Positions 11,220 through 43,807 of a stretch of 64,000 bases of DNA are shown here, piece after piece; position 1 is the first letter of the stretch, and every line of letters begins with the position of its first letter. This DNA is from a virus (lineage: Duplodnaviria > Caudoviricetes). Where the stretch lies: positions 96,001-160,000 of the IMG/VR virus record IMGVR_UViG_3300013426_000014, one strand, 5' to 3'. A program made the position numbers and the translations under genes. The notes under the pieces were generated by a model. The model was not told where the DNA came from. It did no database searches and saw only the letters and a list, made by a program, of their open reading frames with translations.

Positions 11220-12800
11220 CTATATGAGCGAGTTCGTTGATCCGTCCGGCGCGAGCTTCACAGAGAATGTTTGGTATGGGAAACCGCGCTGCCTGTATAT
11301 CTTTTCCCTCTCTTTGAAATGTCTGTATAAGTAGTTGTCCTTCTGATACCCGGTCCCGGCCCGCATGTCGTCACCGAAGTCGATGAAAATCACTTTGTCC
11401 TTGCCGACGGAACGGCGCATGCCGCGGCCGATGAGCTGCGATATCTGGACCTCAGACTTCGTCGACTCGGCGAGGAATATATTGTATATGTTCGACACAT
11501 CGATACCTTCTGAGAATGTGCCGACCGAGGCGACGATCACGGTGTTACCGTCCGCGTCGTCCTCCATCCTATTCTTCGCGTAATCGCGGGTGCTTGAGTC
11601 AACACCGCCGTCGACATAGAACACCGTCTTGTCCGTGTTCTCCCTCAGCCACTCGTATATCCGCCTGCCGTACTCATTCTGTATGTCGGAGAAAATGACC
11701 AGCGAATTTTTCGTCGTCTTCGCGATCATGCCCGTCACGTAATTGAACCGCGCCCGTGACTTGCGCGCGATGTCCTTCTCGAGGTTGAGAAGCTTGCCGC
11801 CGGCGGTGATGTCGTCCCTGTCTTTTGTACATCTCGCGTCATACAGCGCGTTCTTGCGGTCGTCCGTCAGGTAGTCCATCGCGATGCCGACGACATTGAT
11901 AGGCGTCGCGAACTGCTCCTTGTTGATCAGGTCGTAACTTGACAGCCTGAATACGATCGGCCCGATGTATGCCTGCTCGATGAAACTGTCGTATGTTCCC
12001 TCTTTCGGAAACGTGCCGGTCATGCCGACCTTATATCCGGCGTTGTAACATTTTTTTATGATCCCCTTAATGGATGTCGCCGTGGCGTGCTGTACCTCGT
12101 CTATCAGTATGCAGTCGATATCCTTGAAGAACTCGACTCCCTTCTTGCACAGCGATTGGTAGTTGCCGAATATTATGTTGTCGTCATACGTCTTCTTCTT
12201 TTTTGCCTTCGCGTGAATTTCCGAGTACGTCCAGTCGGTCGGCACGCCGTTCCCGCTGTCATACTCGATGAACTTCTCCGCCGACTGAGACGTTAGGTTC
12301 GTATTCGGCGTCACGAACAGTATCTTGCGGAGGTGTAACATGTCCTTCATATACCGGAAGAGCAGGTACGACACGAGCGTCTTGCCACCGGACGTCGAGA
12401 TCTCAACGCAGCAATTGCGGTATGACAATATCGAGTACGCCGCCTGTATCTGGTAGTCTTTTGGCTTCTTGTCGTTTTTCGCGAAAAGGTTATCTGCATA
12501 TTCCTTGAATCCGCCGAACGATATCGAGCAATTCCGTATCTTGCAGTCGAATCCGTCGATGAACTCAATGTCATATCCATACTCCTTGCAGACGTTGACG
12601 AGCTCGAGATACAGGCCGCGTGGTATGATGCAGCCGTTCGACATGAAGCTTTCCTCCACGTTTGCGTACGGCGCCTTGTTCTTGATGATCCACCAGTTGT
12701 TTATCTTTTTGGTGAAAGACATCTCGATCTGCCGCCGCTCGATCTGCGTCATTTGTTCGAGTATTATGAATTTTTCGTCTGATGTAAGTCTCGCCGTCAT
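11220..12800 (-). CDS. uvsW: SF2 DNA helicase, UvsW-like
   Basis: YQIQA Q-motif, ISTSGGKT Walker A, DEVQH, GMTGT, QLIGRGMR motif VI; no in-frame TGA. Confidence 0.9.
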   Translation of the reverse strand: MTARLTSDEKFIILEQMTQIERRQIEMSFTKKINNWWIIKNKAPYANVEESFMSNGCIIPRGLYLELVNVCKEYGYDIEFIDGFDCKIRNCSISFGGFKEYADNLFAKNDKKPKDYQIQAAYSILSYRNCCVEISTSGGKTLVSYLLFRYMKDMLHLRKILFVTPNTNLTSQSAEKFIEYDSGNGVPTDWTYSEIHAKAKKKKTYDDNIIFGNYQSLCKKGVEFFKDIDCILIDEVQHATATSIKGIIKKCYNAGYKVGMTGTFPKEGTYDSFIEQAYIGPIVFRLSSYDLINKEQFATPINVVGIAMDYLTDDRKNALYDARCTKDRDDITAGGKLLNLEKDIARKSRARFNYVTGMIAKTTKNSLVIFSDIQNEYGRRIYEWLRENTDKTVFYVDGGVDSSTRDYAKNRMEDDADGNTVIVASVGTFSEGIDVSNIYNIFLAESTKSEVQISQLIGRGMRRSVGKDKVIFIDFGDDMRAGTGYQKDNYLYRHFKEREKIYRQRGFPYQTFSVKLAPDGSTNSLI

Positions 12801-12862
12801 ATATCAAAAATAAAGTGTTCAACAAAACCATATATTTTATAGGTAAACTATTACATTATTTT

Positions 12863-13480
12863 ATGACCGACCGTTTCAGAATATACATAAAGGCGCGGAT
12901 CACGCTCCGGCAGATGTGACGCCGGGTCATGTCGTCTCGTGCCGGGACGGCTGTCCGTGAAAGTATCGAGGATTTCAGATGCTGTATTGATGAGTACGGA
13001 TTCCGGTATGGGGTCAGGATGTGGATGTTCCCGCCGATGTCGGCAGAGAAATTCTGCGAGATTATGATTGATTACGAGCTGCGACATTACCCCGGCGTGA
13101 CGTTCAGATACCTGATGTCATTGCCGAAGCAGGACCGTGCGCCGTCGTCATACGAGTGGAAGAACGTGTTCGGGAGCGGATCTGATCCAGTGAAAGTAAA
13201 TAAGGTCCGGAAAGAGATGCTTGACTTCGTCAGAGGCAATGTTATGAAAATGAACGTGTATTACCGGGACGGCGTCAGGACCGAATATCAGGATGACTGG
13301 TACCGGAGGTATAGGTTCAAGTCGAAGAGAGAGTTCGAACAGTTCAAACGGAAATTCTTCAGGCTTTACCCGAAGACGAAGCCATATAAGATAAACAAGG
13401 ATGAAATATCCAGATCGTTCTCGATGTTTGACCTACAGTACGGGTTGATGCGGGATTACGACGAAGGATATGATTTGTAA
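12863..13480 (+). CDS. Hypothetical basic protein (205 aa if TGA at 12917 is Trp)
   Basis: ATG at 12863 is in frame with track ORF 12929..13480; TAA stop. Confidence 0.6.
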
Positions 13481-13501
13481 AGATAATAGAACTATATAGA
13501 T

Positions 13502-13678
13502 ATGGATAACAATACGCTTTACGCTGATTTCGAGATAAACGGCGACGACATGTTTGTTGTCACGCCGGAAGGCAATTATTTTAATTTTCCCGCGGGGAGT
13601 TATGACGAGTCACATCCAGACGAAACGGTGATCGATCCGGAAAGTCACAAGGTATATACCGTCAAATTTGGCGAGTAA
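13502..13678 (+). CDS. Small hypothetical protein, 58 aa
   Basis: MDNNTLYADFEINGDDMFVVTPEG...KFGE*; fills the gap between neighbours exactly. Confidence 0.6.
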   Translation: MDNNTLYADFEINGDDMFVVTPEGNYFNFPAGSYDESHPDETVIDPESHKVYTVKFGE

Positions 13679-13681
13679 TTT

Positions 13682-14572
13682 ATGTCGAAGATTACAAGGC
13701 TCGGCCTTTCTATTGTCGCGTTTGACGGAACGGAGCATCTAAAGAATATATTGTATGAGCTTCGCGGCTTGTGCGATGTCATCCATGTATGCCTGCAGCG
13801 AAAATCTTACCACGGTGATCCCATCGCGGCGAAGGATGTCGACGAGGTCGATTTGCTCAGCAGACTCGGTTTTGTTGACAGGATCATCTGATATGATCCG
13901 GATTTATCATATTTGTCTGGAAAGTTTGACATGTCCATCCCGCGTCGTCTCGAGTGCGCGAAACGGAACATGATGCTTGACGAGCTTGAGAAGGAAGGAT
14001 GTTCACACAGCATCATTACGGATTCGGACGAGTTTTATGATTATGACGAGTTCAAAAAGGCGAAGGACCTTATAGACGGGCTCGATTACGTACGGGTAAC
14101 GTATTGTCAGTACGTCAACTACTACAATGCGTATGATCGGATCCTTTTGTATCCGTGGCCGGCGTATGTCCCATTCATAACGGAGTCATCATACAGGTTT
14201 GAGTTTGATTCTGGTGATTTCGACAGACCATCCGACCCGACCAGACGGTACAAGCTTGAGCCGGGGCCAGACGGAAAGAAGAATTTCCAGATAATCGATT
14301 GAGATACGGTCCATATGCATCATTTATCATGGATTCGCCGCGACATAGAGAAGAAACTTGACTGCTGGTCCGCGAAACGGTATTTCGAAAATGTTGCTGG
14401 TCTGCGCGGCCGGATTCTCGACCGGTATTATAACTGGACGCAGGGCGAGAACGCGTATCTCATGTTCGGTGTTCCAGACAACCAGGTCATTGTTCAGAGA
14501 TTAGACGATCAATATATAAATCCCCGATGGAGTCTTACTGAGTCTCCTGAAAAACTTGAATACAGAAAATAG
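13682..14572 (+). CDS. Glycosyltransferase (GT-A fold, family 2-like), 296 aa with TGA=Trp
   Basis: Three in-frame fragments joined at TGA 13889 and 14300; ECAKRN, DSDEFY (DxD) and MHHLSWIR motifs. Confidence 0.75.
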
Positions 14573-14580
14573 GAACGGAC

Positions 14581-15555
14581 ATGAGAGTCGCTGTGATGAT
14601 AATGTCGGCGTCGGTCGAGCCGGCAGTGAGGAATACGGAGGCGGTACTTAAGTATATCGCGGACGACTGTTCTGATATGGCAAGGCGCGGTGAGCTGGTT
14701 AATGAATATGTGTTCTACCCGTATCTGACAGACGGTGGAAAATCCGGTGTGTATCCGGTTGACGGGCATGACGGCTGCTTCCGCATCGTGACTTCCGCGC
14801 CGGATGACATATATGGAACTTTTGAGAAGACGGTTGAGGCTTACCGCATGATACCGAAGGATTTCGATTTCATCATCCGGATAAACATATCATCCTTTCT
14901 TAATGTCAGGATGCTCGATTCGATGATTGACACTGCCGATCCGGATTCCATATATTGCAATACGGTCAATACGGTCATATCATCATATAAATACAGCAAC
15001 TTACTGTATCCGCGGGGCGATTTCTGGATGATGTCTGCCGCTGTTGCCGACAAGGTATTCAGTATGGCAGACAAATTCACTGTCAGTAGGGGCGATCCTG
15101 CGGACTTTATGAAGATGACCACGAATCTCGATCATGTGGACGACGTGTTGACCGGGATGTGCGCCGCCGCGGCGTACGGGAAGAAATATACCGGCATGAT
15201 AAAGCCGATTTATTACCAGTACATACCGAACGAGACGGATCCAGCCGGCCGGATTCCGGTAAGGCTGTGTGTACACGCGCTTACGTCAAGGGTGAAGACT
15301 GTGCCGTCGGGCATGTACAGCGGGTGGTCATGAGACGATAATGAATACCGCCGGCATGATGTCGTCAAGATGCGTGCGTTGTCTGATTTTTATAAGAAAA
15401 CGTCACGCGCGGATTATGATGGCGTGACGTTCGATGACATTGTCGTTCCGGACAGTGATTGCAATTCGAATATTTGTTATTCATTAGTCCGCTCGTCACT
15501 CACCGACGCACGGGAAATAGCCGGGAAAAAGGATTACGACACTTTGTTCAGATAG
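14581..15555 (+). CDS. Glycosyltransferase (GT31/galactosyltransferase-like), 324 aa with TGA=Trp
   Basis: EKTVEAY..FDFIIRINISSFLN, HVDDVLTG; joined across TGA at 15331. Confidence 0.6.
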
Positions 15556-16889
15556 CCGTTGATATCGTCGATATATTTCGATATCTTATCCTTATACTCC
15601 TTTATATTCTCTTTTAGCACGTTGACTCTTATTTCGTTCATTCACGGGTCGACGTGTTCGGTGTTGAGTTCTTTTTTGATTCCTGTGTAATATTCGAAGC
15701 ACATTATGATCGCCGACAACGCATTTGACACCGACCTGACATCGGACGCGCTTTGTTCGAACAGCTTCGGCATCGCCGCACTGACCTTGGATATGATGTT
15801 TTTCACGTCGGCGTCGACCGTATCCGATTTGAGCATGTTCGACGCGATGATGAGTTTATACCGCGTGATGTTGTCGTTCAGTATCTTTATGTAGTCGTTC
15901 ATTCTATTGTATTCATTGTCCTGCCGAATCATGCCATTCCTCGCGTCCTTCCTGTCCTGCCGTTTTTTTCGCATCTCATTGCTGGATTCGACGGTACTGT
16001 CAGAATACCGCAATGCGATGACCTTTATGTCATATCCATGCTTCGCCCCGTATGGCGCGTTGCCGCTGATCTCGCTGGCCATCGTGTCGAATATATCTTT
16101 CACTTTATAGTAATATGTCGACGTATTGTTGAGGGCGTGCGATCAGATCACGTCGGGGCCGTGCGTCACAGCGACAAGCCGGTCTGTATCCTTGAAACCA
16201 AGGAACTCTGGATCTTTCGAAAACATTCAGAAAAGGACATCGTTATAAGCTTTGCTTGATGACGACATCGTTTTCGGCGCCTTTTTCAGTATGTAGAAGT
16301 CGGAGTCCTTCACCGCATCGGGTGCGAATCCGGCGAACTTGATACTGTCCATTATATACCGCGTCGATCTTTTGCGGTTAAACGACATGTAATTATTGTT
16401 CGGCGCGTTCAATGATTTCGTATTATGCCATTCGTCATTTGTGATATTACCCAGTCCTGTCGCGAGGTTAGTTAGCGCTTCGACTACGTTCAATGATTCT
16501 ATGTAACTGTTCGACAACACCTTTCCCCGGACGTCATCAATGAATTTGGATTTGCCACGATTTCCTCCATAATTGTACGGCATATGGATGCAGTCCAACA
16601 TCGACGCGTTCTGCATATCGAACCCTTTATTCGACGAGTTCGCATAATCCAGCAATTTCTTTGTGAACACGGTCGCGTCGTGATCTTCATATTTCAACTG
16701 TTTCAGGATTTCCGCGCCGGCTTTCTTCAGTCCGTCGAGGTCGTTCCATGCCTTGTTGTATGAGGATTTGATGTTTTTGTCCAGTTCCCTCAGTATGTTA
16801 CAATTGAACGCCTCGTTCAAGTCAGATTCATTAGAAGTTCTTGTCACCGATGAAAATCTGCCTGTATTGCGTCTGATATTCCCTGACAT
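15534..16889 (-). CDS. Hypothetical (possible head/internal) protein, about 451 aa with TGA=Trp
   Basis: Track ORFs 16227..16895 and 15642..16103 join in frame via TGA; TAA at 15534; N-terminal LNEAF; start codon uncertain. Confidence 0.6.
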
Positions 16890-17346: not shown

Positions 17347-17350
17347 GTGG

Positions 17351-17965: not shown

Positions 17966-17984
17966 GACAATAAACGACAAAATT

Positions 17985-24600: not shown

Positions 24601-26859
24601 GGCGGCATCATTACCATTATCATCATATATGATTTCGAATATGCCCGGTGATTGTGTAATAGTGTATTCCTTATAGTATACATCATTGGTTATCCAGCTT
24701 GTATCATTTTTGCTAGCGTTTACTGGCCTTGCATATATACGGACCGTGTATGTCCATGTCTGTGCATTGTAGTCTTCCTTATTTTCATATGAATATGGCG
24801 TGTCAATTTCTACGTTATTTGTACCATTCGACCCTTCATATTTCTGTCCGATCCAATCTTCCGCCATATCATTCTTCGTGTCCATGCATTGGAGATACCA
24901 TGGATTCGAAGATGACATTGAAAAGTTTGCTGACGTCGCCCCGGCGGAGATCTGTGTCTGCGGATTTGCGAATAGAATTGACGGTTCTTTCTGCTTCACT
25001 GTCAATAATACATTCGATGCCCAGTCGACGCTCGCGCCTTCGATCTTGAGATAAAAATTATATCACACGGCAATATTGCCGTCTTTGTGCCCCTTTCTTA
25101 CGTTTTCTGGAAATTCTGCCGTGACCGTTACTTTCGTATTGCCGCCAGTAATGGCCAGCTGCCCATTACCCATATTTCCCGCTGCTGTCAGCTTGACATT
25201 CGTATCAACGGAAGATTCGAATGCGTTTCCATCATATGACTTATAAACAGAAAGCGTTCACTTTGATGTGCTGGTATATGAATTGTCTCGTATCTCTATA
25301 TCAAGATTTCTACTGATTTTCCCAGCAGTCTCATAAGACGGTATTGCCGCGAAATCCGTAAAATCAGCAGAAGGGTATACCGTTCCGTTCGCCGGATATC
25401 CGAATTGCAATAGATATAAAGATGTAAATTGTTTCGTTCCTTCGTTATAATATATCCGGCTATTGTCAATATCCGCATAATTTATTGCTTGTACGATGAC
25501 ACCATAATAATGTGGATTTGTATCATCGCTACTTAATTCTTTAATTGTGACATCTACCACATCATCTGGAAGTTCCACGATTGCGGATGGTGGTATAGTG
25601 TAACCGTCAGTTCCGCCTGATAATTGGATATGAGACGAATCTGAATCATATGTTGTGCCAGCCGGAACTGTACTATCATTGATTGTACCAGATGCTATAC
25701 TCGCTTTGTACATTACATGCTCCGCGTCCCATATTATTACAGATTCATCTGTGTTATTTTTCACTACAAGTTTCGGTGGATCATTCGTATCTTTTTTGTA
25801 ACCTGTATAATCAATTGCCCCTGTTGTCACATTTGTTTTGTCATCATCCATTCTTCATCCTACCGTTATTGACGTTTTTTTTATTATATACGGTTGCTGT
25901 ATGAATAAAACGGGAACGACGATATATAAATAAAAATTAGACATACCAAGCACACCGCCGCCCACGGATGAATAATCTGATCAGTTATAATACTCTTCTG
26001 CTTTTATTTGAATATATCGCAAACACCATCTTTTACTAGTTTGATTTATGTTTCTTTGAACCGATAATGCAGTAGATTGCGTATTAGTGTAAATTTGATT
26101 TATGTTATTTTTTTTTGATAATAATACAGTATCTCGGTTGTACACGAAGTCGGTTTCCTCGTTTAACTTTGGCTGATTTGATGATTCGGTTACATTATAA
26201 ATTAAATTATATATATCTGTATTATATTTTTCTACATTTGATTTTATACTGTTCAAAATATTCTTTTTTGCGGTCGGCGAAGGATTTCTTAATAACGCAT
26301 CAATATACGCTTCCTCGTATTTTATGCGATCATATGGATTTGAATTTATCGTATCTGGTGTTCTACCGCATGCGATATTAACGGCAATATTGATATATGA
26401 TCCGTAATCGAAATCATCTCCATTATAACCGATGATAGATCCGACGATATCAGTATATATTGCTGTATTTATATTTAATGTCGTGTATTTTCCATTTTCT
26501 ATATTAATTATGATTGGATTTACAGCAACCTGCCCTAAATCACCAAGTCCATCATTGTATACAGGATTCGGTGCTACAAAATTTGGTTTGTCCACTCAAT
26601 ATGAACAAATATTGTAATCTTCAGCACTGTCATGATATGGTCGGTTAAATGATATCGATACATTTTGTGCTGTATTTGAATTCGACGGTATTGTATTTAT
26701 ACCCAAAATATAATTATTGGATATTAATGGATTTCAATTATCCGCTAAATACCCACTCTGATCAGCATCTGGCATCCAGCTTCCGCCAGATTCTTCAAAT
26801 CAACCAAGTATATTTGTGTCTCGATGTCCTCATACGCCACACCATCCTGTTGTCAACAT
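18607..26859 (-). CDS. Giant fibre/adhesin-like protein with BACON/Ig-like tandem domains, 2750 aa with TGA=Trp
   Basis: Ten track ORFs lie in one frame interrupted only by TGA; ATG at 26859, TAA at 18607; BACON-like motifs (SSSNPW, ENRSATISVMQ, ITVTQLG). Confidence 0.75.
20050..22050 (-). repeat. About 6 tandem ~115-aa domains with W-x(4-5)-E-x-GTDGDEF...P-x-N...K-x-C-x-x-TFTYGY
   Basis: Repeated motif seen at about 21950, 21615, 21205, 20875, 20515 and 20180. Confidence 0.75.
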
Positions 26860-26863
26860 AATA

Positions 26864-29800
26864 TTATCTGTTAAAATTTGGGCTTTCGACATTATATGAA
26901 ACGGATTTCTTGTCCGCATTCCACACATTGTTCACGTCATCGTTATATGACGACGCGTTAAAAATCTCCTGTGACACCTCGACGCCGGACTTCACGTCCG
27001 ATATCTCGATGTTCGTCGTCGACAGCAGGTATTCCGGCGTCTTCGGAAGGTAGTCGTACACGCATGAATCCGTCGTCGTCCCCCTGTCACTGATGATAAA
27101 GTTCCGCGAGCTGTCCAGATTGATCCTGTCATACCTGTCCTGATCCGGATCCCTCGCGTATTTATTGAAAAAATTATCACTCCACGCCGACCGCACGACG
27201 CTCCAATCCCGTTCGAAATCAATGCCTAAGCCGAACGCGGTCGCGTTCGTGTTGACGCAGTATTTCGTGTCCTCTGAATATTTGTTGAACCACATCTGCC
27301 CGTCCGCCGCGACGTTCTCCGCCGACACGTTCGCCGATCTGAAATCAACACCCATCGTCTCGGATAATTCTTTGTTGTTGAATTTCCAGTCGATCCCACT
27401 CACCGTCTCCGGCTCGAAATATGTCGGATGGACCCAGAACCGCTCCGCCGATCTGTTTGTCTTTATGAATGTCTGGTCAACCGGATCGACGACCGTCACG
27501 CCGAACAGATCCGCCGTCACGTTGTCGTAATATTTCACACCGTCCGCCGTCTTCACCCACATCACCGCGTCTTTTACCGCTGACTTGAAGTCATCGTATG
27601 TCGTTCCGGCATGGTCTGATCCGCCGTCGTTCGCCCCGATTTTTCATATGACCGCCGGACCGTCCGTCTCTGTCCTCGCTGTCAGCAGGTTGAACGTCTG
27701 ATCATCCTTCACATATGATCCGGCTGCCGTTCGGATGTCATCGTTTCCGTCTGAATAAAGTCTGTTCACGTTTTTGTCCGTCCCGGCTGGTTTGACCTCC
27801 TTCGCTTTCGAGTGTGCGGTGAATCCCGGGCCGGACGATTCGATGAAGAATTCGTCGCCCGCCGCGAATCGGATCTTCATTTTGGACGGGATTGCCGTCC
27901 GTCATCCTTCGCCGGCGACATGTTCCGAATATACCCGCTCTGATTTCACGGCGGACGGCATTTTCATCGCCGTGAGCCCGCCGAAGTCAATAGATCTGTT
28001 CCTGTCAGCGTACACGAGCGTCGACATGTTCTTATGCCATATGATCGCGATCTCCCGCGCGGTCTCGTCCACGACGATCTCCATGTCATGGTCCGATCCG
28101 TCCTTCACGACGGCGATGATCCCCGCGAAATTGTCTCACTTGTCCGTGTTTATGACGTTCTTCCTTTGTGACGATATGTTGATCTTCACACCGCCCGACA
28201 CCATCTCGACGGTGTTCATCCCCCTTGAATAGAGCGTCGAGAATTTCGGCAGGTGGTTGCTTTCCGTCATCAACATGTCGGATATAGTCAGGTTCCCCGC
28301 GAGGTTCTCGTCCGTCGACAGGAACGTCCCCTCGAAATATTTCCGGTATGTCCCGCCTGATATCTCAGGGCATGACATGTATCCTATCTGAGACGCGAAT
28401 TTCGAGTTCGCCGCATTGCCGTCATAGTCCGCCGGTATGAAGAATGACGTCACCGTGTCGGCCGAGCTGTTGGGATTGTATCTCAACATGCTGTTGTTAT
28501 ATGTCAACTTGATGTTGACGCCGCGGGTATCCGTTCCGACCGCCCGTCATTTGCAGTTGTACGGCGACACGAGCGACACCTGCGATCTCGTGATGTTCCG
28601 CTCATACTTGTGACGGAGGTACTTGTTCATCGACAGCTCCACCGGGTACTTATACGTGTACGGCGTTGTGTTGTAGTCGGTTATCGGGTTTTGCGCGTAA
28701 AGCGGGACGGAGTCGTCCTTCCCGATGTAGCTTGAGAACACCTCCGATGGTCTGTCGGACAGCGTCTTGTCCGCGTCATCCTCGTATATCTCCTCCCCTT
28801 CCGTCGCGCCGCGGTCCGATATCACCTTCTCCGACTCGCCTGCCATCGCGATGTTCGACACGTTGTCCATCACGTCGAAATTGTAGTCCCGCACGGGGAA
28901 TATCCCGCACACGCCGTAATCGAACTCCATCGGTATGTACAGGTATACCGACCGGCTCGTGTCGAGCGGCGACTCCGTGAATATGACGGCACGTTCCGGG
29001 TTGTTATATGAGTACATGTATCCGCCGCCGATCTTCGACAGGTATACATATTTCCCGGACGCGTCCATCGTCATGACCGGCCGTCCGGCCACTGCCTTTT
29101 TGTAGTTGTCGATGTACTGCACCTCGTATGTGTTCAGGCCGGATGCGTCCATGAACTCGACCGTCCACGCCGGCCGCGGGCCGAGCACCTCGAAATTGAT
29201 CGGCGTCAGAGCCGGGTCGTCGTAATCCGACGTTAGCGCGATCTCCGGTTGCTCACCGTTCGAGAAGAACGACACGGCGGCGGATTCTTTTTTGTACGTC
29301 TCCATCATGTCGGCCGACGCGGCGGTATATCTCGATACCCGTTGGAACGTCAGTTTCTTGTCCGATGTTACAGACAGGTTACGGTATGTGGCCTTCGCCT
29401 CGTACGGCCCGTCAAGAATGTTCAGCGCGGCCGCTATGACGGCGCACTGATCGGTCACGCTTTCTCGCTCCGCGTACATAGAGACGCGGGTTATCGTGTA
29501 TTTCCTCCCGTCCGTATCATCCGTTCCGGCGTTGACTGTTACATGGCTGACGCCTTTCTTCTTGTACAGTGGACTGTCGGAGAATATCAGCTCGTATATC
29601 CGTGTGTCAGACTCGTTCGTCTCGTCTATTATTCTGAAATGCTCGCCCGCATGCAGCGCGTCGTTCAGACGCATCGTCACGAACCGCCTCGACTCGATTT
29701 TCCGCGCCATCCCGACAAATACATTGTGACCGGGTTTGTCTTTATATATGTCCGCGTAACCGGATCCCATCATTGTCCCCGATATCCGCCTGCATCGGTC

Positions 29801-36561: not shown

Positions 36562-36575
36562 AAAAACGGAATTAT

Positions 36576-38243
36576 ATGAGGATAACTGAATTGCAGTGGA
36601 GGAATCTGTTCTCGTACGGGAACGACATACAGACGTTGGATCTGTCAGACGGCGGCAAGCTCTGGCAAGTTGCCGGCAGGTCCGGCGCCGGCAAGTCTGT
36701 CATCATGTCGCTGCCGAAGCTTCTTTTCTTCGGCAGAACGGACGGCGTGTCAGTCAACTCGGTCGCGAACAGGATCAACAAGAACGGTTGGCTTCGCGGC
36801 GTGGTGTCAAAAAACGGTGACACGTACGTCATAGAGCGGACGTTTTCGCCGTCAGGACTTACCGTGTCGAAGAACGGTGTCGATATAGACAAGGCTGGCA
36901 AGAAGAATATGGAGGACGTCATATCGCAGGAAATACTGGACGGCATGCCGTACCACATCTTCGCGAACGTCATTAACCTGTCGCTCAAGAAGTTCAAGTC
37001 ATTCATATCGATGACGCCGGCGGATAAGCGGCTGATCATTGACCGGATATTTTCGCTTGACGTGCTCAACGCGGTCCATGAGATGGTGGCGAAGGACATC
37101 AGGGACGTCGGAAATGTCATCAATATGAACAAGGGACAGATATTCACCATCGAACAGAACATAAAAAGGTCGGAGGACGAACTTGATCGACTGACAAAAA
37201 AGACCGCGGAGGAGGACACTGCCGCCGCCGCGGAGCTTGAGACGAGCATCACCCGGATCGATGGGGAGATTAACAAGCAGAAGACAGACGAGGAGAAGTA
37301 CACGGCGAAATCGCTTGAGCTGATACAGAAGTCCGGCGCGGTGAAAAACGCCCTTTCCGGCATGCGCTTCGAACTGAACAATGTACTTAATATGATCGCG
37401 CTGTATAATCAGAACAAGTGTCCTACATGCGGGACGCCGTTCACCGGCGCCGGCTTCGACGAGGTTCGGAAAGGTCTCGCGGACAAGAAAGCGGAGATAG
37501 AGACGAACATATCGCAATATGACGCGGCAGTCCGGTCGTACGACGACATGATATCAAAGGTTGACACATGCGTCCAGACACTCAGGAACAATGTACAGTC
37601 GCTCGACCGGCTTAGATCCGCCGCCGTCATCAAGCTGAATGACATCCGGTCGGCGGAAGGACGCCGCGGGCAGGCGGCGGCGATCAACAACATCATAACG
37701 GCGGCGAAGGAGAGCAAGGTCGAGATGGACAAGATCGTCGGCGAGAACACCGCCAACATGGAATGCCTTAACATCCTTGAGGAACTTTACGGGTCGGACG
37801 GCGTGAAGAAGGAGATGATGACGGCGTATTTGCCGGAGTTGAATGAAGATATCATGTCGTCGCTGTCGTCGATGTCATTTCCGTACTCACTCGAGTTTGA
37901 CGGAAACTTTGACCCGCACATCGACGATCTTGGTGAGGAAATATCGCCCGACACTTTGAGCGAGGGGGAGCGCAAGCGCGTCGATATTGCGGTCATATGC
38001 GCGCTCGTCAAGCTGATAAAACGGAAATATCCGCAGCTCAACATGATAGCGCTCGACGAAACGTTGGGATCGTTGGATCCGGAGACGTCATGTGACTTGT
38101 TGAGATACCTCGGCGAGCTTGCTGAAGAAATCGACATCAACGTGTTTATCGTGAGTCACGCCGCCCTTGATGAGTCGTTGTTCGACAAAAGGATCACGGT
38201 CACGAAGGAGAACGGTTTCAGCTCGATCGACATATCGGCATAA
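36576..38243 (+). CDS. Recombination ATPase, Rad50/SbcC/T4 gp46-like
   Basis: GRSGAGKS, CPTCG zinc hook, LSEGERKR signature, LDE Walker B, IVSH; no TGA. Confidence 0.93.
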   Translation: MRITELQWRNLFSYGNDIQTLDLSDGGKLWQVAGRSGAGKSVIMSLPKLLFFGRTDGVSVNSVANRINKNGWLRGVVSKNGDTYVIERTFSPSGLTVSKNGVDIDKAGKKNMEDVISQEILDGMPYHIFANVINLSLKKFKSFISMTPADKRLIIDRIFSLDVLNAVHEMVAKDIRDVGNVINMNKGQIFTIEQNIKRSEDELDRLTKKTAEEDTAAAAELETSITRIDGEINKQKTDEEKYTAKSLELIQKSGAVKNALSGMRFELNNVLNMIALYNQNKCPTCGTPFTGAGFDEVRKGLADKKAEIETNISQYDAAVRSYDDMISKVDTCVQTLRNNVQSLDRLRSAAVIKLNDIRSAEGRRGQAAAINNIITAAKESKVEMDKIVGENTANMECLNILEELYGSDGVKKEMMTAYLPELNEDIMSSLSSMSFPYSLEFDGNFDPHIDDLGEEISPDTLSEGERKRVDIAVICALVKLIKRKYPQLNMIALDETLGSLDPETSCDLLRYLGELAEEIDINVFIVSHAALDESLFDKRITVTKENGFSSIDISA

Positions 38244-38328
38244 GGTGTAAATAATTGAAAAATGACAGGGACGTGAACAACGTTCCCGTTTTTTGTTTTA
38301 TATTCGCGGTATCATAAAATAACATATT

Positions 38329-38916
38329 ATGAAAAGAATTATAACTATTATCACATTATTGTTCTTTTACACATTTGCTTCTGCACAAAAGACAAGTTAC
38401 AAAGAAACGATACAAAATTGGAACAGCGGATTTACATTGGGAATGAATTGCGGTATTGTTCCGTCTGTTATACGTTCTGACATGCACGGCGCGGCCGGCG
38501 CATTCATCGGGCTTAACCTGAATATTGCAGGATTTGATATAAATGCGCATTTCAAAAGCAGAAAACATGGAAGTACGATAGAAGTCGGCAAATGGGAAGA
38601 TGAATATAGAGGCGCATTATATCAATTTGGATACAGATTACCGGTTATTTCAAAATGGGTATGTGTAACTCCTTTATTGGGATTATATAAAGAACAATGG
38701 GGTACGACAAACGGTTATGAATACACGATTGATCATAATGGCAGTATCACGAATGGATATAATATTGATATGACAATACTTGATTTTGATTACGGTGGAA
38801 AAATCGAAATAGCTGTAACACGGAATTCCAATATCAGAATGTTATGTTCAATAACAGTGACCAATCATTTTGTTTCTTATGGCATCGCGTTACATTGTTC
38901 GCCTATTTGTTTTTAA
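38329..38916 (+). CDS. Signal-peptide-bearing outer-membrane beta-barrel-like protein (AT-rich moron)
   Basis: MKRIITIITLLFFYTFASAQ signal peptide; alternating G/aromatic strands (YQFGYRLP, FDYGGKIEI); lower GC than flanks. Confidence 0.65.
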   Translation: MKRIITIITLLFFYTFASAQKTSYKETIQNWNSGFTLGMNCGIVPSVIRSDMHGAAGAFIGLNLNIAGFDINAHFKSRKHGSTIEVGKWEDEYRGALYQFGYRLPVISKWVCVTPLLGLYKEQWGTTNGYEYTIDHNGSITNGYNIDMTILDFDYGGKIEIAVTRNSNIRMLCSITVTNHFVSYGIALHCSPICF

Positions 38917-38973
38917 GATAAAATAAATTGATACATAATCACATATAATTTTTGAAATATAAATCAGAAAGTT

Positions 38974-39756
38974 ATGTGATCAAGTCATAATGAAACCGAA
39001 TTCTTCAAAGGTGAGTTCGTGCTCGACCGGCAGATAGAAGATTTCTGCACTTCATATTCTGGAGCGCCATATGATTATGAGTTTATTAGGACTGTTGAGG
39101 ACGGGCTGCAGGAACGATTGAACAACACCGAATGGGTGTCGACAGAGACGGGACGGCGGAAAGATGGGACGATCATAGACCAGTACTCGATACCGTCTGC
39201 CGATGGTTTCGGCAGCAGGGCGGAGAATTACGTGTACAACGCCCTTGTCGATATGGATATCGTCGACGAGCCGAAGAATCCGAATGGCCCAATGAAGTTT
39301 CCCGACTATATCGCGAAAAATGGGACATGGATCGATTCAAAGGCGGTGATTTGTAAAAGTCCGAAACGGAAAACTGGACGGTGGATCCCGAACTATAATT
39401 CGGGTTTGGGCGACAGGGACGAGATACTGAAAACAGTCGAGCACTTGAAAACGTGACGAAATCACAATTCGGAATCATCGGCGTTGATAATTCTGACATT
39501 TTACGCCATACAGAACGGGTATATCGAATTACTGTATGTCAAAGTTGTGCCGGAGTTGCTTTACATATCAGTGTACAAGGATCTGCATGACTTTCAGATG
39601 AAAAGAGTCGACCGGAAAACCGGCGAGATCAAGAACGCGAACGTGCAGGGACGGCTGACTGTCAGGACGTACACGGATAATAATAAATCATCCGCCGTCT
39701 ATATCGACAGACTGTTCGACACGGTGGACAATATTCGGAAACGGGAGAAACGATAA
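38974..39756 (+). CDS. PD-(D/E)xK restriction-endonuclease-like protein, 260 aa with TGA=Trp
   Basis: FGSRAENYV...KFPDYIAKNGTWIDSKA; ATG-TGA start in frame; joined across TGA at 39454. Confidence 0.6.
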
Positions 39757-39759
39757 ACG

Positions 39760-39788
39760 AACGGCGGATTGCACATCCGCCGTTTTTT
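39760..39788 (+). terminator. Rho-independent terminator
   Basis: AACGGCGGAT-TGCAC-ATCCGCCGTTTTTT. Confidence 0.8.
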
Positions 39789-39827
39789 AATAAATATCAA
39801 GAACGTAATAGAACGTAATCGGTAATC

Positions 39828-40076
39828 ATGGAAAAACTGTCGGCGAAAGGGGTCAAGATACAGAGAATGATACATGACCTGTATACGGAATGCCTATCGT
39901 ACTGCCGCGCGGCGGAAAAGATCGGCGCGTGCCGTCAGGAACGGACGTACAAGATCGCCGACACACTTGATACGTTCCTTTCAAGATTCATCAACCTGAA
40001 CAATCATGTCATCGCCGTCGAGAACGACAGGGAAACTGACACATCCGGCACAATATATCCGGATCGTCATATTTAG
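39828..40076 (+). CDS. Hypothetical protein, 82 aa
   Basis: Clean ORF after AATAAATA; TAG stop. Confidence 0.6.
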   Translation: MEKLSAKGVKIQRMIHDLYTECLSYCRAAEKIGACRQERTYKIADTLDTFLSRFINLNNHVIAVENDRETDTSGTIYPDRHI

Positions 40077-40224
40077 CGCGTATTTCACTTCTGACGCGAT
40101 GTTATGTATCATATGCGCAATCTATCATTTACTATAAAATCGCGCGTCTGGACGTGAATAAACAGTCAAGAAACAAATTTGAATAAAATAATCGGAAACA
40201 TGTACGTGTTTCCGAATTTTTTAT

Positions 40225-40232
40225 TATATTTG
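40225..40232 (+). promoter_or_regulatory. Bacteroidota sigma-A -7 element (TAnnTTTG)
   Basis: TATATTTG just upstream of ATG 40237; related TATATTCG at 33312 and 38299. Confidence 0.45.
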
Positions 40233-40236
40233 CGGT

Positions 40237-40632
40237 ATGAATGATTCTTGCAGTATTATGACGAAAGTAAACCGCAGACAATATACGCCGAAACGTTGGC
40301 GGAGGATGATCGATATGCTGATACCGGACGCCGATAATGACGATCTGCTTAATTACGACAACAGGCACCGATCTGCATGGTATACAATTAATATCGAATG
40401 CAGAAACAAGCTTTTTATTGATCCGGACAAGGACCGTGTCTGTGGCATCCGGTCTGGCATTATATTGCCACATCTCCGAATGGAGCCGATGCTGCCGGCG
40501 AGGTATGAGAAGCGGACAGAAATGTTCAGTAATCTTCTATACGGACAGAGCGTGAAGCGCCGCATTGTCGTTTGGTACCCGACACCGAAACAGTATGGTG
40601 ATTACGGAAGGATTTCACCGGGACGGACATAA
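40237..40632 (+). CDS. Hypothetical protein, 131 aa
   Basis: ORF track; TAA stop. Confidence 0.6.
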   Translation: MNDSCSIMTKVNRRQYTPKRWRRMIDMLIPDADNDDLLNYDNRHRSAWYTINIECRNKLFIDPDKDRVCGIRSGIILPHLRMEPMLPARYEKRTEMFSNLLYGQSVKRRIVVWYPTPKQYGDYGRISPGRT

Positions 40633-40642
40633 ATAAAATGAT

Positions 40643-40960
40643 ATGACACCGGAATGGAACAGCAAAAAGAAAAAATTCGCGTCGTCACGTTATTATTGCG
40701 TGACGCGGACGTATTCGCCGTCATTCAAGAATCCGGGAATGCAGAACGTCACGTGCAGTATATACGCGGCGGACGACATTAATACTGTCACCGCATATTC
40801 ACAGACAGAGCCGAAGATCAAGGTGACATATCAGATAACGGATGACGAATGGCGCCGTAGGATGGAGTTGAATGAATCTGATTCACTCCGCCGGCGCGGA
40901 AAGGATATGTGGTATTCAAGTGTAATTTTCTCTTATCCGATGTCAACTAAAGAATCATAA
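40643..40960 (+). CDS. Hypothetical protein, 105 aa
   Basis: ORF track; tandem with previous gene. Confidence 0.6.
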   Translation: MTPEWNSKKKKFASSRYYCVTRTYSPSFKNPGMQNVTCSIYAADDINTVTAYSQTEPKIKVTYQITDDEWRRRMELNESDSLRRRGKDMWYSSVIFSYPMSTKES

Positions 40961-41048
40961 CGGAACACGAATAATTTTACGGAATGCCTGATATAATTTA
41001 TATCAGGTTAATTTATTATATTGCTTGACAAACATAAAAGATTTCTGT

Positions 41049-41360
41049 ATGGAATACAGGCTGGTCGAGCCGTACGAGCGGAAGGCGAGATCGATCGAGG
41101 AAAGTCTCGGCGGGCTCGACACGATAAAGGCGGGGACGCCGACAGAACGGGTCGTGATAAAGATGCGGATGGCCGGGGCGCCATACGCGCGAATACAGTC
41201 GGCGCTGGGCATGATACCAAAACGGACGATATCGATGATACTGAAGGAGAACGCTCCGGAGCTGGTGTCGATTGATGTGAATAATCACAAAATACCTGAT
41301 GACCTGCATAAGGATTATGACTGATCATGAGATGATTTCTGCCGCAAAAAGATAAGATAA
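41049..41360 (+). CDS. Small HTH-like DNA-binding protein, about 103 aa with TGA=Trp
   Basis: ERVVIKMRMAGAPYARIQSALGMIPKRTIS helix-turn-helix-like; ends KDYD-W-S-W-DDFCRKKIR* using two TGA. Confidence 0.55.
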
Positions 41361-41367
41361 TGACAAG

Positions 41368-41775
41368 GTGAACATAAATGACATCAAATCGATACGTCAT
41401 GGATCCGCCGTATATGTGGTGTTTCCGGACGGCGACGTTGAGAGACGTACTGTAAGAACCGTGAACTGGACGAATGACGATCCGCCAAAGATATACACGT
41501 ACGGGGATCATGATGATATGAACGCGACATGCGGGCCGTACAGGCCGGACGAGATAGAGGGTGTTCCGCTCGCGCAGATGGATAAATCACAGCTAGTGTC
41601 AGTCGGTTTTGATCCGGATACATGTGTCATATGGCTGAGTGATAACCTGTATTTCTGTAAGGATGAGGACGGCGTCATCTGGCTCGGCTTTGATGAGTAT
41701 TACGTGACGTCAATCGATTTCCTTCATGAGCTGCAAAACATATACTTCGACATAACGAAAAAAGAGCTGCTTTAA
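41368..41775 (+). CDS. Hypothetical phage protein, 135 aa
   Basis: IEGVPL...IDFLHELQNIYFDITKKEL C-terminus resembles small Bacteroidota-phage proteins. Confidence 0.7.
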   Translation: MNINDIKSIRHGSAVYVVFPDGDVERRTVRTVNWTNDDPPKIYTYGDHDDMNATCGPYRPDEIEGVPLAQMDKSQLVSVGFDPDTCVIWLSDNLYFCKDEDGVIWLGFDEYYVTSIDFLHELQNIYFDITKKELL

Positions 41776-41787
41776 CAGCTCTTTTTT
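41760..41787 (+). terminator. Rho-independent terminator
   Basis: AAAAGAGCTG-CTTTAA-CAGCTCTTTTTT. Confidence 0.8.
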
Positions 41788-41951
41788 CATTTACGCGGGC
41801 GATGCCGTGAATCATACGGGCGCCCGCCGCGGGAAGTGACCGCGTTCTGCCCGGTTTTTGTGATGTGTGTCAGGGCGTCACATCGCCCCGCTATATGCGG
41901 AATGTCCGGACTATCCGCATCATATGGAACATATTATTTATCAGCAGATCC

Positions 41952-41959
41952 GATAAATA
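41952..41959 (+). promoter_or_regulatory. Putative late promoter GATAAATA
   Basis: About 24 nt upstream of ATG 41984. Confidence 0.55.
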
Positions 41960-41983
41960 TCAGGTAATTAACAATCATGGATT

Positions 41984-42685
41984 ATGATTAATGAAGAGTT
42001 CGATTTGAGCAAAGTGGACAACGTCGACTGGACTGACACGTTCACCGAGGCGGATGACAACGCGATGAATGACAAGATACAAGAATTCATCGACAAGCAC
42101 GTTGAAATCTTTTATATAGACAAAGACTGACATGCCACATACAACACACCGTCGTTCGCCATCACGACGGACGGGAAGGTTATGCTATGTATGCCGGATG
42201 GTAAACCGTTGGACGAAGGCGTTACCGTGCAAATCGGCGACAAGAACCCGATTAATCGTATCATGAAACCGGGGGATCCATTTGATTCAATAAAAGACAT
42301 GCTTTGCGGCATGAGCCTGGCCGATATGCCTGATACTAAAATCGATGTGATTAATATGGATATTGAACATCTTTACGGTTTGCCGGATTCTGTCGGCGGC
42401 TTATGAGTCACCGATTGCGCGTATCTTGCCGATCTGTCCGGCATACCGAAGAATGTAAACGGCAATCTCAAGCTGAATCTTCACATAACGACATGTGTCA
42501 ACACGATGCCGGAACGAATCAAATACCTATATATAGGAGACGGTTATTTCGATCTGACAAAGGATGTAATCGACATGCTTCCGTATGACATACAATACAT
42601 AAAAGTTGTCTCAACATACGAGCAGCCGGATCAGAAGCTTATCTCGCTTCTTAGTGGACATTGTAAAAGTTTGACGACAAAATAA
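41984..42685 (+). CDS. Phage LRR-like protein, 233 aa with TGA=Trp
   Basis: MINEEFDL start; LYGLPDSVGGL-W-VTDCAYLADLSGIPKNVNGNL LRR-like units; TGA at 42128 and 42404. Confidence 0.65.
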
Positions 42686-43807
42686 TTATATCGAGACAAT
42701 GTCGAACAGTCCGTCACTCCAGTATCTTTTGTCATAGAAATTGATATATCTGGTATTGGGATTCATCTTTGCCCACTTGACGACGTCATTGACATCCCAT
42801 TTCTTCGCGTCGGGGATATTGTTTTCCCTTCTGAACATGTTCCACAGGAAAACCTTCCCGCCTTCTTTGATCTTGTCAACAGCATGCGCCCTGCCGGTAT
42901 CATCGTCGTCGAACAACCACCGGAAATCACCCATGAACGGCATCGTCTTCGCCGCGCCGCACAGCGCTATTGCGTTCTTTATAAGAAACGCGTCGAGCGG
43001 TCCCTCCGTTACAATTACCGGTCTCGTATAATCGACGGTAAGTGAGTTGAACACCATCGACAGCGTGTCTATCTCCGGCGGGACGGTGACATTTAGCGTC
43101 AGGATGTTCTTCATCATCATGCCGTAAATATTGGTCAGGTTAAACGTCCTGTACTTCGGCTCGTTTTTCGGCCGATTCTTTTTGAGCGATCTCGTCTGCA
43201 CACCGAATATCCGTCCGGATTTAGTAAGGTTCAATATATATAGTTCGTCTTTCTTGACCGAATACAGAAATCTTGACCGGTCAAACTGCATCCTGTTTTT
43301 AAGATATACATCCGCTTTATTTTCTACCGCCTCGTCGAGTCGCAGCAGCGATTTGAATGTCTCGCGCCTGAACGCAAACTTGTCGACCTCCGCTTGATCA
43401 TATATCTCGATCGACACACTGACAGACGAATCGCCCGCGCTGACGTCCGCCGGCTTATTCGCCGTGACATAATCGATGATGTCAAGTGGCACGGATCCAC
43501 CGCTGTATTTCTTCAGGAACTCGGTCACCGGCATCGACACGCCGCAATTAAAGCATTTGTACAAGTTCGCGAAACGGCCGGACAGTCCAATGTTCGCCCG
43601 TTTTTTCGACGGGTCAGACATCGAGTCACCACAGACGGGGCAGCAAAAATTAAGCCGGTTCGACTGCCGGCGCACGTTCTGCCTCCGCCTGTCGTCCGGA
43701 AATCGACGCTCAAGAATATCACCGACCATCGCCGCGAGCCGGTCGCTGTACTCCTCCGGCGTCAAATCGTTCTGACCGAATAGTTTGTCGATTTTGCTGC
43801 TGTCCAT
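42686..43807 (-). CDS. DNA primase (T4 gp61-like)
   Basis: CCPVCGDS...YKCFNCG zinc ribbon, VTEGPLDA and FDDD TOPRIM motifs; no TGA. Confidence 0.88.
   Translation of the reverse strand: MDSSKIDKLFGQNDLTPEEYSDRLAAMVGDILERRFPDDRRRQNVRRQSNRLNFCCPVCGDSMSDPSKKRANIGLSGRFANLYKCFNCGVSMPVTEFLKKYSGGSVPLDIIDYVTANKPADVSAGDSSVSVSIEIYDQAEVDKFAFRRETFKSLLRLDEAVENKADVYLKNRMQFDRSRFLYSVKKDELYILNLTKSGRIFGVQTRSLKKNRPKNEPKYRTFNLTNIYGMMMKNILTLNVTVPPEIDTLSMVFNSLTVDYTRPVIVTEGPLDAFLIKNAIALCGAAKTMPFMGDFRWLFDDDDTGRAHAVDKIKEGGKVFLWNMFRRENNIPDAKKWDVNDVVKWAKMNPNTRYINFYDKRYWSDGLFDIVSI

Follow-up and report, generated by a model that had tools for sequence, protein, structure and literature searches.

Why do four core replication genes of a phage that reads the TGA stop codon as tryptophan (Trp) use TGG alone, when genes on either side of them carry TGA? 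The question is raised by a 64,000-nt stretch of DNA (the window) from the 269-kb contig of a gut jumbo phage with 50% GC; the contig is about 87% complete, and the genome size is 269 kb or more. An earlier note on the window had proposed that TGA is excluded from core replication genes and present in most structural genes, so that early genes are legible under the unmodified host code and late genes become translatable once a suppressor is made. Coordinates with the prefix w are window positions, and counts such as 0/4 give the TGA and TGG codons of a gene. Gene calling treated TGA and TGG as neutral and reproduced the genes and counts of the earlier note exactly. Of the 41 whole genes in the window, 29 have one or more TGA, and the total is 94 TGA and 181 TGG codons; across the whole contig, 89 of 232 genes (38%) have at least one TGA.

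TGA-free replication genes in the window

The four genes that prompted the question are the following:

w11220-12800, minus strand: UvsW-like SF2 DNA helicase, 526 aa; 0/4; no late promoter ahead
w33337-34938, plus strand: DnaB/gp41-like replicative helicase, 533 aa; 0/7
w36576-38243, plus strand: SbcC/Rad50/gp46-like ATPase, 555 aa; 0/3
w42686-43807, minus strand: gp61-like DNA primase, 373 aa; 0/5

The UvsW-like protein matches the PHROG DNA helicase family (E=4e-63), and its best match among solved structures is T4 UvsW (2oca, E=1e-33). The remaining three match the PHROG DnaB-like helicase (E=2e-47), SbcC-like (E=2e-73) and DNA primase (E=9e-29) families, the last also matching T4 primase structures. 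Ahead of the DnaB/gp41-like gene, at a distance of 25 nt, is a TATATTCG-type motif. (A 560-aa primase frame with two TGA codons was rejected as an artefact that overlaps a plus-strand gene.) On an independent gene call, the earlier count of 0 TGA to 19 TGG across the four genes is matched exactly; by chance, 19 Trp codons would all be TGG with a probability of 3.5e-4 if TGA occurs at the window rate, or 7e-3 if it occurs at the genome rate. With only 3-7 Trp codons per gene and a post hoc choice of genes, luck or local GC-richness could be thought to account for the absence of TGA. Against this, TGA use is significantly heterogeneous across genes (chi-square p=3e-9), and the classifications of the whole genome given below point the same way.

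Late units and their promoter

The late genes and units of the window, with the promoter motifs that precede several of them, are these:

w11180-11187, minus strand: late-promoter motif GATAAATA, 34 nt before the ATG (w11153) of a neck-protein-like gene
w9648-11153, minus strand: neck-protein-like late gene (weak Pfam T4_neck-protein match); 5/5
w18607-26595, minus strand: giant late-region protein of at least 2662 aa; 19/28
w26864-33234, minus strand: two late genes, 721 aa (1/7) and 1394 aa (5/12); GATAAATA at w33265
w43896-44627, plus strand: 243-aa late gene abutting the TGA-free primase; 2/3; GATAAATA at w43865
w45095-57622, minus strand: late unit, four genes named, headed by a baseplate wedge gene; GATAAATA at w57652
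w55709-57622, minus strand: the baseplate wedge gene (PHROG baseplate wedge, E=3e-26); 1/3
w57718-62241, plus strand: late unit of four genes behind GATAAATA (w57688)

The first of these motifs opens a TGA-containing late unit (w589-11153) directly after the TGA-free UvsW-like helicase; beyond the neck-protein-like gene, the remaining genes down to w589 have counts of 3/8, 0/0, 5/5, 1/5 and 0/1. Besides the baseplate wedge gene, the w45095-57622 unit contains genes for proteins of 628 aa (2/4), 62 aa (1/3) and 2834 aa (12/34). The four products of the w57718-62241 unit are 113 aa (2/2), peptidase-like and 213 aa (5/3), 83 aa (0/0) and 1093 aa (6/7) in length.

The late promoter motif, (G/A)ATAAATA, is T4-like and has 57 sites in the genome. 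Forty-two sense sites fall within 100 nt upstream of gene starts, where 2.5 are expected, and their distances peak at 30-39 nt before the ATG; no information was found upstream of the octamer, and there is no -35 element. The motif stands ahead of 10 of 10 structural units vs 1 of 13 DNA-gene units (p=1e-5). It is kept upstream of orthologues in a standard-code relative, G001 (15/21 vs 9/72, p=4e-7), and is also conserved at orthologues in the closest recoded relative, G003. T4 late transcription uses TATAAATA promoters, which are read by gp55, gp33 and gp45. As in T4, the motif described here is an 8-nt, -10-type element without a -35 element, located about 30-40 nt before the starts of head, tail, portal and baseplate genes; unlike T4 TATAAATA, which begins with T, it begins with G or A. 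Homologues of gp55, gp33 and gp45 were not identified in this contig (about 87% complete). A clamp-loader gene is present, and a gene at genome positions 41735-42493 (0 TGA) has a weak sigma-factor-like match (PHROG RNA polymerase sigma factor, E=6e-7). A weak Bacteroidota-like motif of the TAnnTTTG type also occurs and is an indirect hint of a standard-code host.

A genome-wide partition of TGA codons

When genes are grouped by function, 23 DNA, nucleotide and transcription genes have 3 TGA and 115 TGG codons vs 19 and 66 in 10 structural genes (Fisher p=1e-5; gene-level Mann-Whitney p=6e-4), and the early-late difference claimed for the window thus holds genome-wide by functional class. When grouped by promoter, late-promoter units have 158/364 (30% TGA) vs 22/207 (10%) in early-type units (p=1.5e-10; gene-level permutation p=2e-4), the early class resting on a weaker motif (16 sense vs 8 antisense sites) and on class inheritance along the unit, with 79 genes left unclassed. 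Genes with a late promoter of their own have 67/148, and those with an early-type motif of their own 5/63 (p=5e-5). Within the TGA-poor arm of the genome, opposite-strand genes with late motifs carry TGA (4/0 and 2/4), and their neighbours have none. The early/late codon partition is real across the genome and statistically strong: p ranges from 1e-5 to 1e-10 with the two independent classifications and from 2e-4 to 6e-4 in the gene-level tests.

Early genes terminate in TAA or TAG, never in TGA. Because they are also nearly free of internal TGA, they have the same reading under the standard code and code 4, which bears out the earlier proposal that early genes are legible under the standard code.

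The difference cannot be put down to base composition. GC, GC3 and A-vs-G third-position use are equal in the two classes (0.353 vs 0.337), and the contrast persists within strata. At the neutral synonymous rate, late units would have 184 TGA codons (158 observed) and early units 77 (22 observed, a depletion of about 3.5-fold); the DNA gene set has 3 TGA vs 34.5 expected (p=4e-14). Luck and local composition are therefore rejected by the genome-wide and gene-level tests as the reason for the four TGA-free genes, and we give this reading practically no credence. Among late genes, TGA use follows the use of A-ending codons (rho 0.53, p=2e-5).

Departures from the partition

Two genes between the DnaB-like helicase and the gp46-like ATPase carry TGA:

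w34991-35458, plus strand: 155-aa gene, function unassigned, between the DnaB-like helicase and SbcD; 2/0
w35458-36561, plus strand: SbcD/Mre11/gp47-like nuclease, 367 aa (Pfam Metallophos, E=1e-8), directly upstream of the gp46-like gene; 2/1

Codon 144 of SbcD is TGA here and in G003 and aligns with a TGG-encoded Trp in G001. Codon 13 of the 155-aa gene is likewise TGA in G003, and the UvsX gene has one TGA. Since SbcD carries TGA at a conserved Trp, the class is strongly depleted in TGA and not strictly purged; the word "excluded" in the earlier note was too strong for SbcD and UvsX, although the depletion itself stands. In all, about 20 TGA codons are left in early-class units. The TGA-free DNA-metabolism genes include those for the polymerase, helicases, primase, ligase, clamp loader and SSB.

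The TGA codons that survive in the recombination proteins SbcD (Trp144) and UvsX, and in the small gene before SbcD, might be signal, not noise, a suggestion that we regard as quite improbable. On this reading, the suppressor tRNA described below would gate the passage from origin-dependent to recombination-dependent replication, together with packaging, besides virion synthesis. If this were true, the tRNA intron would put an extra splicing step into the recombination-replication gate.

Probable codon regimes and competing explanations

The pattern is probably best explained by two codon regimes, in which early genes are purged of TGA and late genes use TGA, read by a phage tRNA-Trp(UCA). Early proteins would be made with little or no suppressor in a host for which TGA is a stop, and it is proposed that selection therefore strips TGA from early genes. 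Expression of the tRNA array would then allow TGA to be read as Trp and tolerated in late genes, which use it about as often as any A-ending synonymous codon, with the most abundant virion proteins avoiding it. We infer the order of these events, the standard code of the host and any regulatory benefit beyond that of the late promoters.

TGA could also be an adaptive timer, kept in late genes so that virion and lysis proteins are not translated too soon, before the suppressor is available; recoding would then be regulatory in its own right and more than a synonym that is tolerated. Borges et al. (10.1101/2021.08.26.457843) put forward such a model for gut phages, and the partitions by function and by promoter support it too. 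TGA occurs in every giant late protein, in a 1370-aa amidase-bearing late protein (five TGA codons) and in 7 of the 10 annotated structural genes. A dedicated lysis gene or cassette was not identified in this contig. However, late genes already possess a separate promoter class; their TGA use is at or slightly under the neutral A-ending rate and tracks the A-ending use of each gene; TGA codons are not clustered toward 5' ends (KS test vs TGG, p=0.25, with the first TGA at a median of codon 86); and TGA is wholly absent from 34 of the 89 genes in late units, including those for the major head, sheath and tube. Given their own late promoters and a near-neutral rate of TGA in late genes, purifying selection in early genes suffices and no timer is needed, which leaves the timer a possibility that we are inclined to doubt.

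A third explanation, which we think unlikely, is that suppression is leaky or slow and that TGA is avoided according to the amount of protein needed, regardless of timing; replication genes would then be without TGA owing to strong expression and not to their early timing. The major head, sheath and tube genes, with 0 TGA in 18 Trp codons (P=0.0015 at the late-gene rate), would fit this explanation, as would the drop in late-gene TGA fraction with higher codon-usage score (rho -0.27, p=0.04) and the 1/14 of five high-scoring late genes at genome positions 170-178 kb. Yet the correlation with codon score is weak, and depletion extends to dozens of small, low-scoring genes of the early arm and to few-copy enzymes (primase, ligase, homing endonucleases and methyltransferase). 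The base following TGA is also unbiased (p=0.08), giving no sign of competition with a release factor.

A probable suppressor tRNA

When this phage (G000) is aligned with G001, 36 of 75 TGA codons face Trp, followed by Tyr (13) and Phe (9); conversely, of 68 G003 TGA codons, 50 are aligned with Trp in this phage. Neither the G001 nor the G003 comparison has an enrichment of Gly at aligned TGA positions. On the evidence of these alignments, TGA encodes Trp in this phage.

The sole TGA decoder found is a split tRNA-Trp(UCA) gene (genome 206860-207225), which lies outside the window in a tRNA array of the TGA-poor arm. With introns allowed, ARAGORN recovers a canonical tRNA(UCA) beginning 11 nt past the preceding tRNA; as a control, 0 of 2000 shuffles of the upstream DNA yield a UCA tRNA. 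Another complete phage has an intact tRNA(UCA) that is 77% identical and has the same anticodon arm. Within this genome, the split gene has tRNA-Trp(CCA) as its closest genuine paralogue, with G1-U72 and G73 in common.

The insert that splits the gene is 293 nt long, is strongly structured (z=-5.7) with GNRA-type hairpin loops, and lies between anticodon nucleotides 34 and 35; U is the last base of the 5' exon and G that of the insert. Group I introns split the anticodon loops of cyanobacterial and plastid tRNA-Leu(UAA) and of Azoarcus tRNA-Ile. The insert resembles these in its 34/35 position, U/G boundaries, length of about 290 nt and strong structure; unlike them, it has no match to the group I intron model in an Rfam search up to E=10. 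Judged by position, boundaries and structure, it is compatible with a group I intron and may work like one. A single RNA-library contig spans the unspliced form, and a spliced joint was not found in the sequence runs examined, the RNA run consisting of contigs only. Introns in tRNA genes occur in alternative-code jumbo phages (PMC13037316). Because an L-like motif is found 245 nt upstream of the tRNA array, the suppressor itself could be late.

The host code and recoded relatives

In G003, TGA accounts for 64% of Trp codons, replication genes included: its orthologues have 3/1 (UvsW), 2/4 (DnaB), 1/2 (SbcC) and 1/1 (SbcD), and its contrast between DNA and late genes is not significant (7/8 vs 42/21, p=0.23). 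As G003 replication genes carry TGA, the partition is not a fixed trait of the lineage. Such heavy use would suit a host that reads TGA as an amino acid, in which case there would be no code switch; nor are RF1 and TrpRS genes present in this contig (about 87% complete). However, a recoded host gives no reason why early genes should be depleted of TGA by 3.5-fold to 12-fold, or why the phage should have a tRNA(UCA) of its own. Genes with the recoded codon make up 26-71% in recoded phages of standard-code hosts and about 90% in phages of recoded hosts (Borges et al., 10.1101/2021.08.26.457843), and the 38% of this phage falls inside the former span. Its nearest named phages are the Prevotella Lak phages, and relatives about 90% identical to it are found in pig-gut metagenomes. 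A recoded host is thus very improbable, and the two codon regimes set out above remain the probable account.

A switch from the host code to an alternative code has been proposed for code-4 gut phages of the Jade, Sapphire and Agate clades, in which use of the alternative code in replication genes is termed "variable" (Borges et al., 10.1101/2021.08.26.457843). The present phage agrees with that model in its reading of TGA as Trp, its 38% of recoded genes, its structural-gene bias and its phage tRNA(UCA), which makes it a fresh example of a phenomenon already known. Like those code-4 phages, it has in-frame TGA at Trp positions, a minority of recoded genes, a phage-encoded suppressor tRNA, and recoded structural modules scattered along the genome. 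It differs in the near-complete depletion of replication genes (3/115), measured here against a promoter-defined late class and a neutral expectation, and in a suppressor gene that is split by an insert; unlike Jade phages, this contig is without an RF1 or TrpRS operon. A passage in the same paper (Borges et al., 10.1101/2021.08.26.457843) has Lak phages using an alternative code in late genes. By its nearest named matches, this 50% GC phage is kin to the TAG-recoded Lak phages and seemingly not to the named TGA clades. These closest named relatives have a tail sheath 38% identical to its own, and both are large T4-like myophages of animal guts. Devoto and colleagues are said to have described in 2019 Prevotella Lak megaphages of 540-550 kb that are AT-rich and recode TAG to Gln. 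Unlike Lak (TAG to Gln), this phage recodes TGA to Trp in a genome of 269 kb or more with 50% GC.

Genome, gene calls and the meaning of TGA

The stretch comprises bases 96001-160000 of a single viral contig of 269,322 bp with a GC content of 50%, estimated by CheckV to be about 87% complete. Among named phages, the Lak megaphages of Prevotella are its closest relatives (38% identity in the tail sheath), and animal-gut sequencing runs, including pig-gut metagenomes, hold close strains and relatives that are about 90% identical. The open-frame mass of the contig more than doubles when TGA is read through, and in giant frames of 2,600-2,800 codons TGA is the sole interruption. Genes were chosen by dynamic programming with a codon-usage model in which both TGA and TGG scored zero, and two starts were refined afterwards. 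The resulting 232 genes cover 87.6% of the contig and contain 249 TGA and 841 TGG codons in frame (counts are given below as TGA/TGG; coordinates prefixed with w are those of the window, all others those of the contig). Most large proteins lack a PHROG or Pfam match, and the function-based gene classes are small for this reason.

Comparison with related phages indicates that TGA encodes tryptophan. The TGA codons of this phage align with W at 36 of 75 positions in a 364-kb standard-code relative (G001), followed by Y (13) and F (9), and 50 of the 68 TGA codons in the closest relative, a TGA-recoded 49.6-kb fragment (G003), lie opposite a tryptophan codon of this phage. When TGA and TGG are summed, tryptophan content is normal in each gene class.

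One of the giant frames (w18607-27222, minus strand) spans 2,662 to 2,871 codons according to which start is taken. Its 5' part includes a stretch of 39-42% GC with a low codon-usage score, and an L-type motif at w27166 falls within the 3' end of the gene upstream. The family-B DNA polymerase is divided between two TGA-free genes about 90 kb apart (190064-191539, plus strand; 11184-12455, minus strand), with a homing-endonuclease gene directly after the N-terminal part.

Replication genes of the window

The earlier note held that TGA is excluded from core replication genes, on the basis of four genes in the window:

w11220-12800, minus strand: UvsW-like helicase, 0/4 (best solved match, T4 UvsW)
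w33337-34938, plus strand: DnaB/gp41-like helicase, 0/7
w36576-38243, plus strand: SbcC/gp46-like protein, 0/3
w42686-43807, minus strand: primase, 0/5

Recounting gave exactly the same result, 0 TGA and 19 TGG. The window has 41 whole genes, 29 of them with TGA (94/181 in total), and at this rate the chance of finding no TGA among 19 tryptophan codons is 3.5e-4. Exclusion in the strict sense does not stand, since UvsX has one TGA and an SbcD/gp47-like nuclease (Pfam Metallophos), which lies between the helicase and gp46 genes and was missed by the note, has two; what remains is a strong depletion. Trp144 of the SbcD-like protein is TGA both here and in G003, and TGG in the standard-code relative; a search of this protein against solved structures gave no match. 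A 560-aa primase frame with two TGA codons, produced by a first greedy call, was dropped when dynamic programming and a competing plus-strand gene placed the start at w43807.

A late promoter as an internal yardstick

The octamer (G/A)ATAAATA, which resembles the T4 late promoter TATAAATA, occurs at 57 sites in the genome. At 42 of these, against an expectation of 2.5, it reads in the sense orientation and precedes a start codon by no more than 100 nt; the distances peak sharply at 30-39 nt from the ATG, and no upstream element accompanies the octamer. The sites in the window are:

w11187, w18577, w33265, w39789, w41952, w43865, w57652, w57688

All 10 annotated virion genes (sheath, tube, major head protein, prohead protease, portal, terminase, baseplate wedge, neck-like, head closure, and an amidase-bearing 1370-aa protein) lie in units headed by the octamer, compared with only one of the 13 genes for DNA metabolism (p=1e-5). 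The octamer is conserved before orthologous genes in G001 (15/21 versus 9/72, p=4e-7) and likewise in G003.

A second, weaker motif, TATATT(T/C)G, precedes 16 genes, mostly in the small-gene arm, the tRNA array, and NrdD. A "middle" promoter motif (TATAATAT-like) was not used as a gene class because it is palindromic and equally frequent in antisense. A 252-aa protein (41735-42493, minus strand; TGA-free, 0/4) has a weak match to a phage RNA polymerase sigma factor (PHROG E=6e-7) and is a candidate late-promoter recognition factor.

Genome-wide distribution of TGA

TGA use is uneven among genes (heterogeneity p=3e-9) and follows the promoter classes. The counts are 67/148 for genes that have a late motif of their own and 5/63 for those with an early-type motif of their own (p=5e-5). 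When genes are assigned by transcription unit (late units lie behind the octamer), the counts are 158/364 for late and 22/207 for early units (p=1.5e-10; p=2e-4 with gene labels shuffled). The difference between functional classes anticipated by the earlier note also holds across the genome: 23 genes of a DNA-metabolism set have 3/115 and 10 structural genes 19/66 (p=1e-5; Mann-Whitney p=6e-4). The former set comprises the split PolB (two halves), UvsW, DnaB, a second helicase, primase, SSB, clamp loader, ligase, SbcC, SbcD, UvsX, exonucleases, NrdD, ThyA, a methyltransferase, the sigma-like factor, phosphoesterases, and homing or HNH endonucleases. Within a TGA-poor arm (178-265 kb), the few late-motif genes on the opposite strand have TGA (4/0, 2/4) and their neighbors have none. 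Low-scoring open frames with many TGA codons (5/1, 3/2) also occur in this arm, at 228091-231231 (plus strand).

Base composition is not the cause of this bias. GC and GC3 are equal in late and early units, the A-ending share in two-fold purine boxes is 0.353 in late and 0.337 in early units, and the contrast in TGA persists within strata of A-ending codon use. The same A-ending share served as a neutral yardstick for the number of TGA codons expected.

Observed and expected TGA codons by gene class
Class; observed; expected; p
Late units; 158; 184; 0.015
Structural set (10 genes); 19; 25.5; not significant
Early units; 22; 77; 2e-17
DNA-metabolism set (23 genes); 3; 34.5; 4e-14

TGA is thus near its neutral rate in late genes and far below it in early genes, which argues that it is an ordinary synonym in the former and has been purged from the latter. 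Within late genes, TGA use tracks each gene's own A-ending preference (rho 0.53). By this gene call, early genes stop only at TAA or TAG, without a preceding TGA; in the standard-code relative, 20% of large genes end in TGA.

A split suppressor tRNA

Standard searches found 33 tRNAs at 202-222 kb and no UCA anticodon among them. ARAGORN with introns allowed found one canonical tRNA(UCA) at 206860-207225, which starts 11 nt beyond the tRNA before it. Its anticodon is interrupted between nucleotides 34 and 35 by a 293-nt insert, so that tRNA finders with default settings miss the gene; U is the last base of the 5' exon and G that of the insert. Shuffling the upstream kilobase gave a UCA tRNA in 0 of 2000 trials. 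In the predicted precursor fold, the exons form a cloverleaf and the insert folds on its own into a strongly structured domain (z=-5.7). Once joined, the exons share 77% identity and the same anticodon arm with the uninterrupted tRNA(UCA) of a complete 168-kb phage that is unrelated, and the nearest real paralogue in the genome is tRNA-Trp(CCA), with G1-U72 and G73 common to both. In Rfam, the insert matched no group I intron model and the split gene no tRNA model. An intron-less "tRNA-Cys" at 207154-207225, without Rfam support, is probably an artefact of the 3' half of tRNA(UCA).

The insert is retained in pig-gut relatives apart from one variable segment toward its 5' part, where 51 nt replace 10 nt. 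The unspliced gene is spanned by one contig from an RNA library, which may derive from precursor RNA or from carried-over DNA; among the sequencing-run contigs searched, none showed a spliced joint, and contigs of this kind cannot demonstrate its absence. Searches for relatives of the gene adjoining the tRNA, and for the 5' exon pattern of tRNA(UCA), found none. RF1 (PF00472) and TrpRS (PF00579) have no match in the approximately 87% of the genome covered by the contig. Introns have been reported in tRNAs of alternative-code jumbo phages (PMC13037316).

A probable constraint on early genes

The three most abundant virion proteins have no TGA among 18 tryptophan codons (P=0.0015), and in late genes TGA falls as the codon-usage score rises (rho -0.27, p=0.04); together these observations suggest that TGA suppression carries a cost. 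The positions of TGA and TGG within late genes do not differ, with no early placement of TGA, and the base that follows does not differ between them (p=0.08). The +5 and +6 context does differ, which probably reflects gene composition.

Because G001 and another relative, G002, are essentially standard-code, G003 is the sole usable recoded replicate. Its orthologues of the replication genes include TGA (UvsW 3/1, DnaB 2/4, SbcC 1/2, SbcD 1/1), and in this 15%-complete fragment the contrast between DNA-metabolism and late genes is not significant. G003 is collinear with w1-41360, its proteins are 44-70% identical to those of this phage, and TGA accounts for 64% of its tryptophan codons. At 24.5% GC versus 50% here, the pair represents a very large compositional shift inside one phage lineage.

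The earlier note had read the pattern as a possible code-switch timer. Its partition of early from late genes is borne out, and selection against TGA in early genes is needed to explain the data; a timer role for TGA in late genes is not, because these genes already have their own promoter. The neutral rate in late genes, the TGA-free abundant virion proteins, and the TGA codons in G003 replication genes are arguments for a pattern that may come mainly from constraint on early genes and not from a purpose-built timer.

In a survey of TGA- and TAG-recoded gut phages, Borges et al. (10.1101/2021.08.26.457843) found the alternative code in structural and lysis genes and variably in replication genes, with only part of the genes recoded in phages of standard-code hosts and with suppressor tRNAs often going undetected, and proposed a code switch in mid-infection. 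The phage described here matches theirs in every feature testable here, and differs in lineage, GC content, the near-complete purge of TGA from DNA-metabolism genes, and the split suppressor gene. It is a clean and quantified new example of a published idea, that early genes stay readable by the host, and not a new phenomenon. As a moderate-GC relative of the Lak megaphages whose conserved T4-like promoter gives an inbuilt measure of "late", it bears on the evolution of recoding and on annotation, both in mixed-code gene calling and in intron-aware tRNA searches.

TGA codons near gene ends

The last 12 codons of genes are not enriched in TGA over TGG (19/249 versus 47/841). In about eight genes, a TGA lies one to three codons ahead of the TAA or TAG stop, for example those for the prohead protease and terminase; among the locations are:

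26277-28049
64999-65742
72296-74407
205264-205674
252613-253446

Such tandem ends would terminate nearly alike under both codes and may be what is left of earlier TGA stops.
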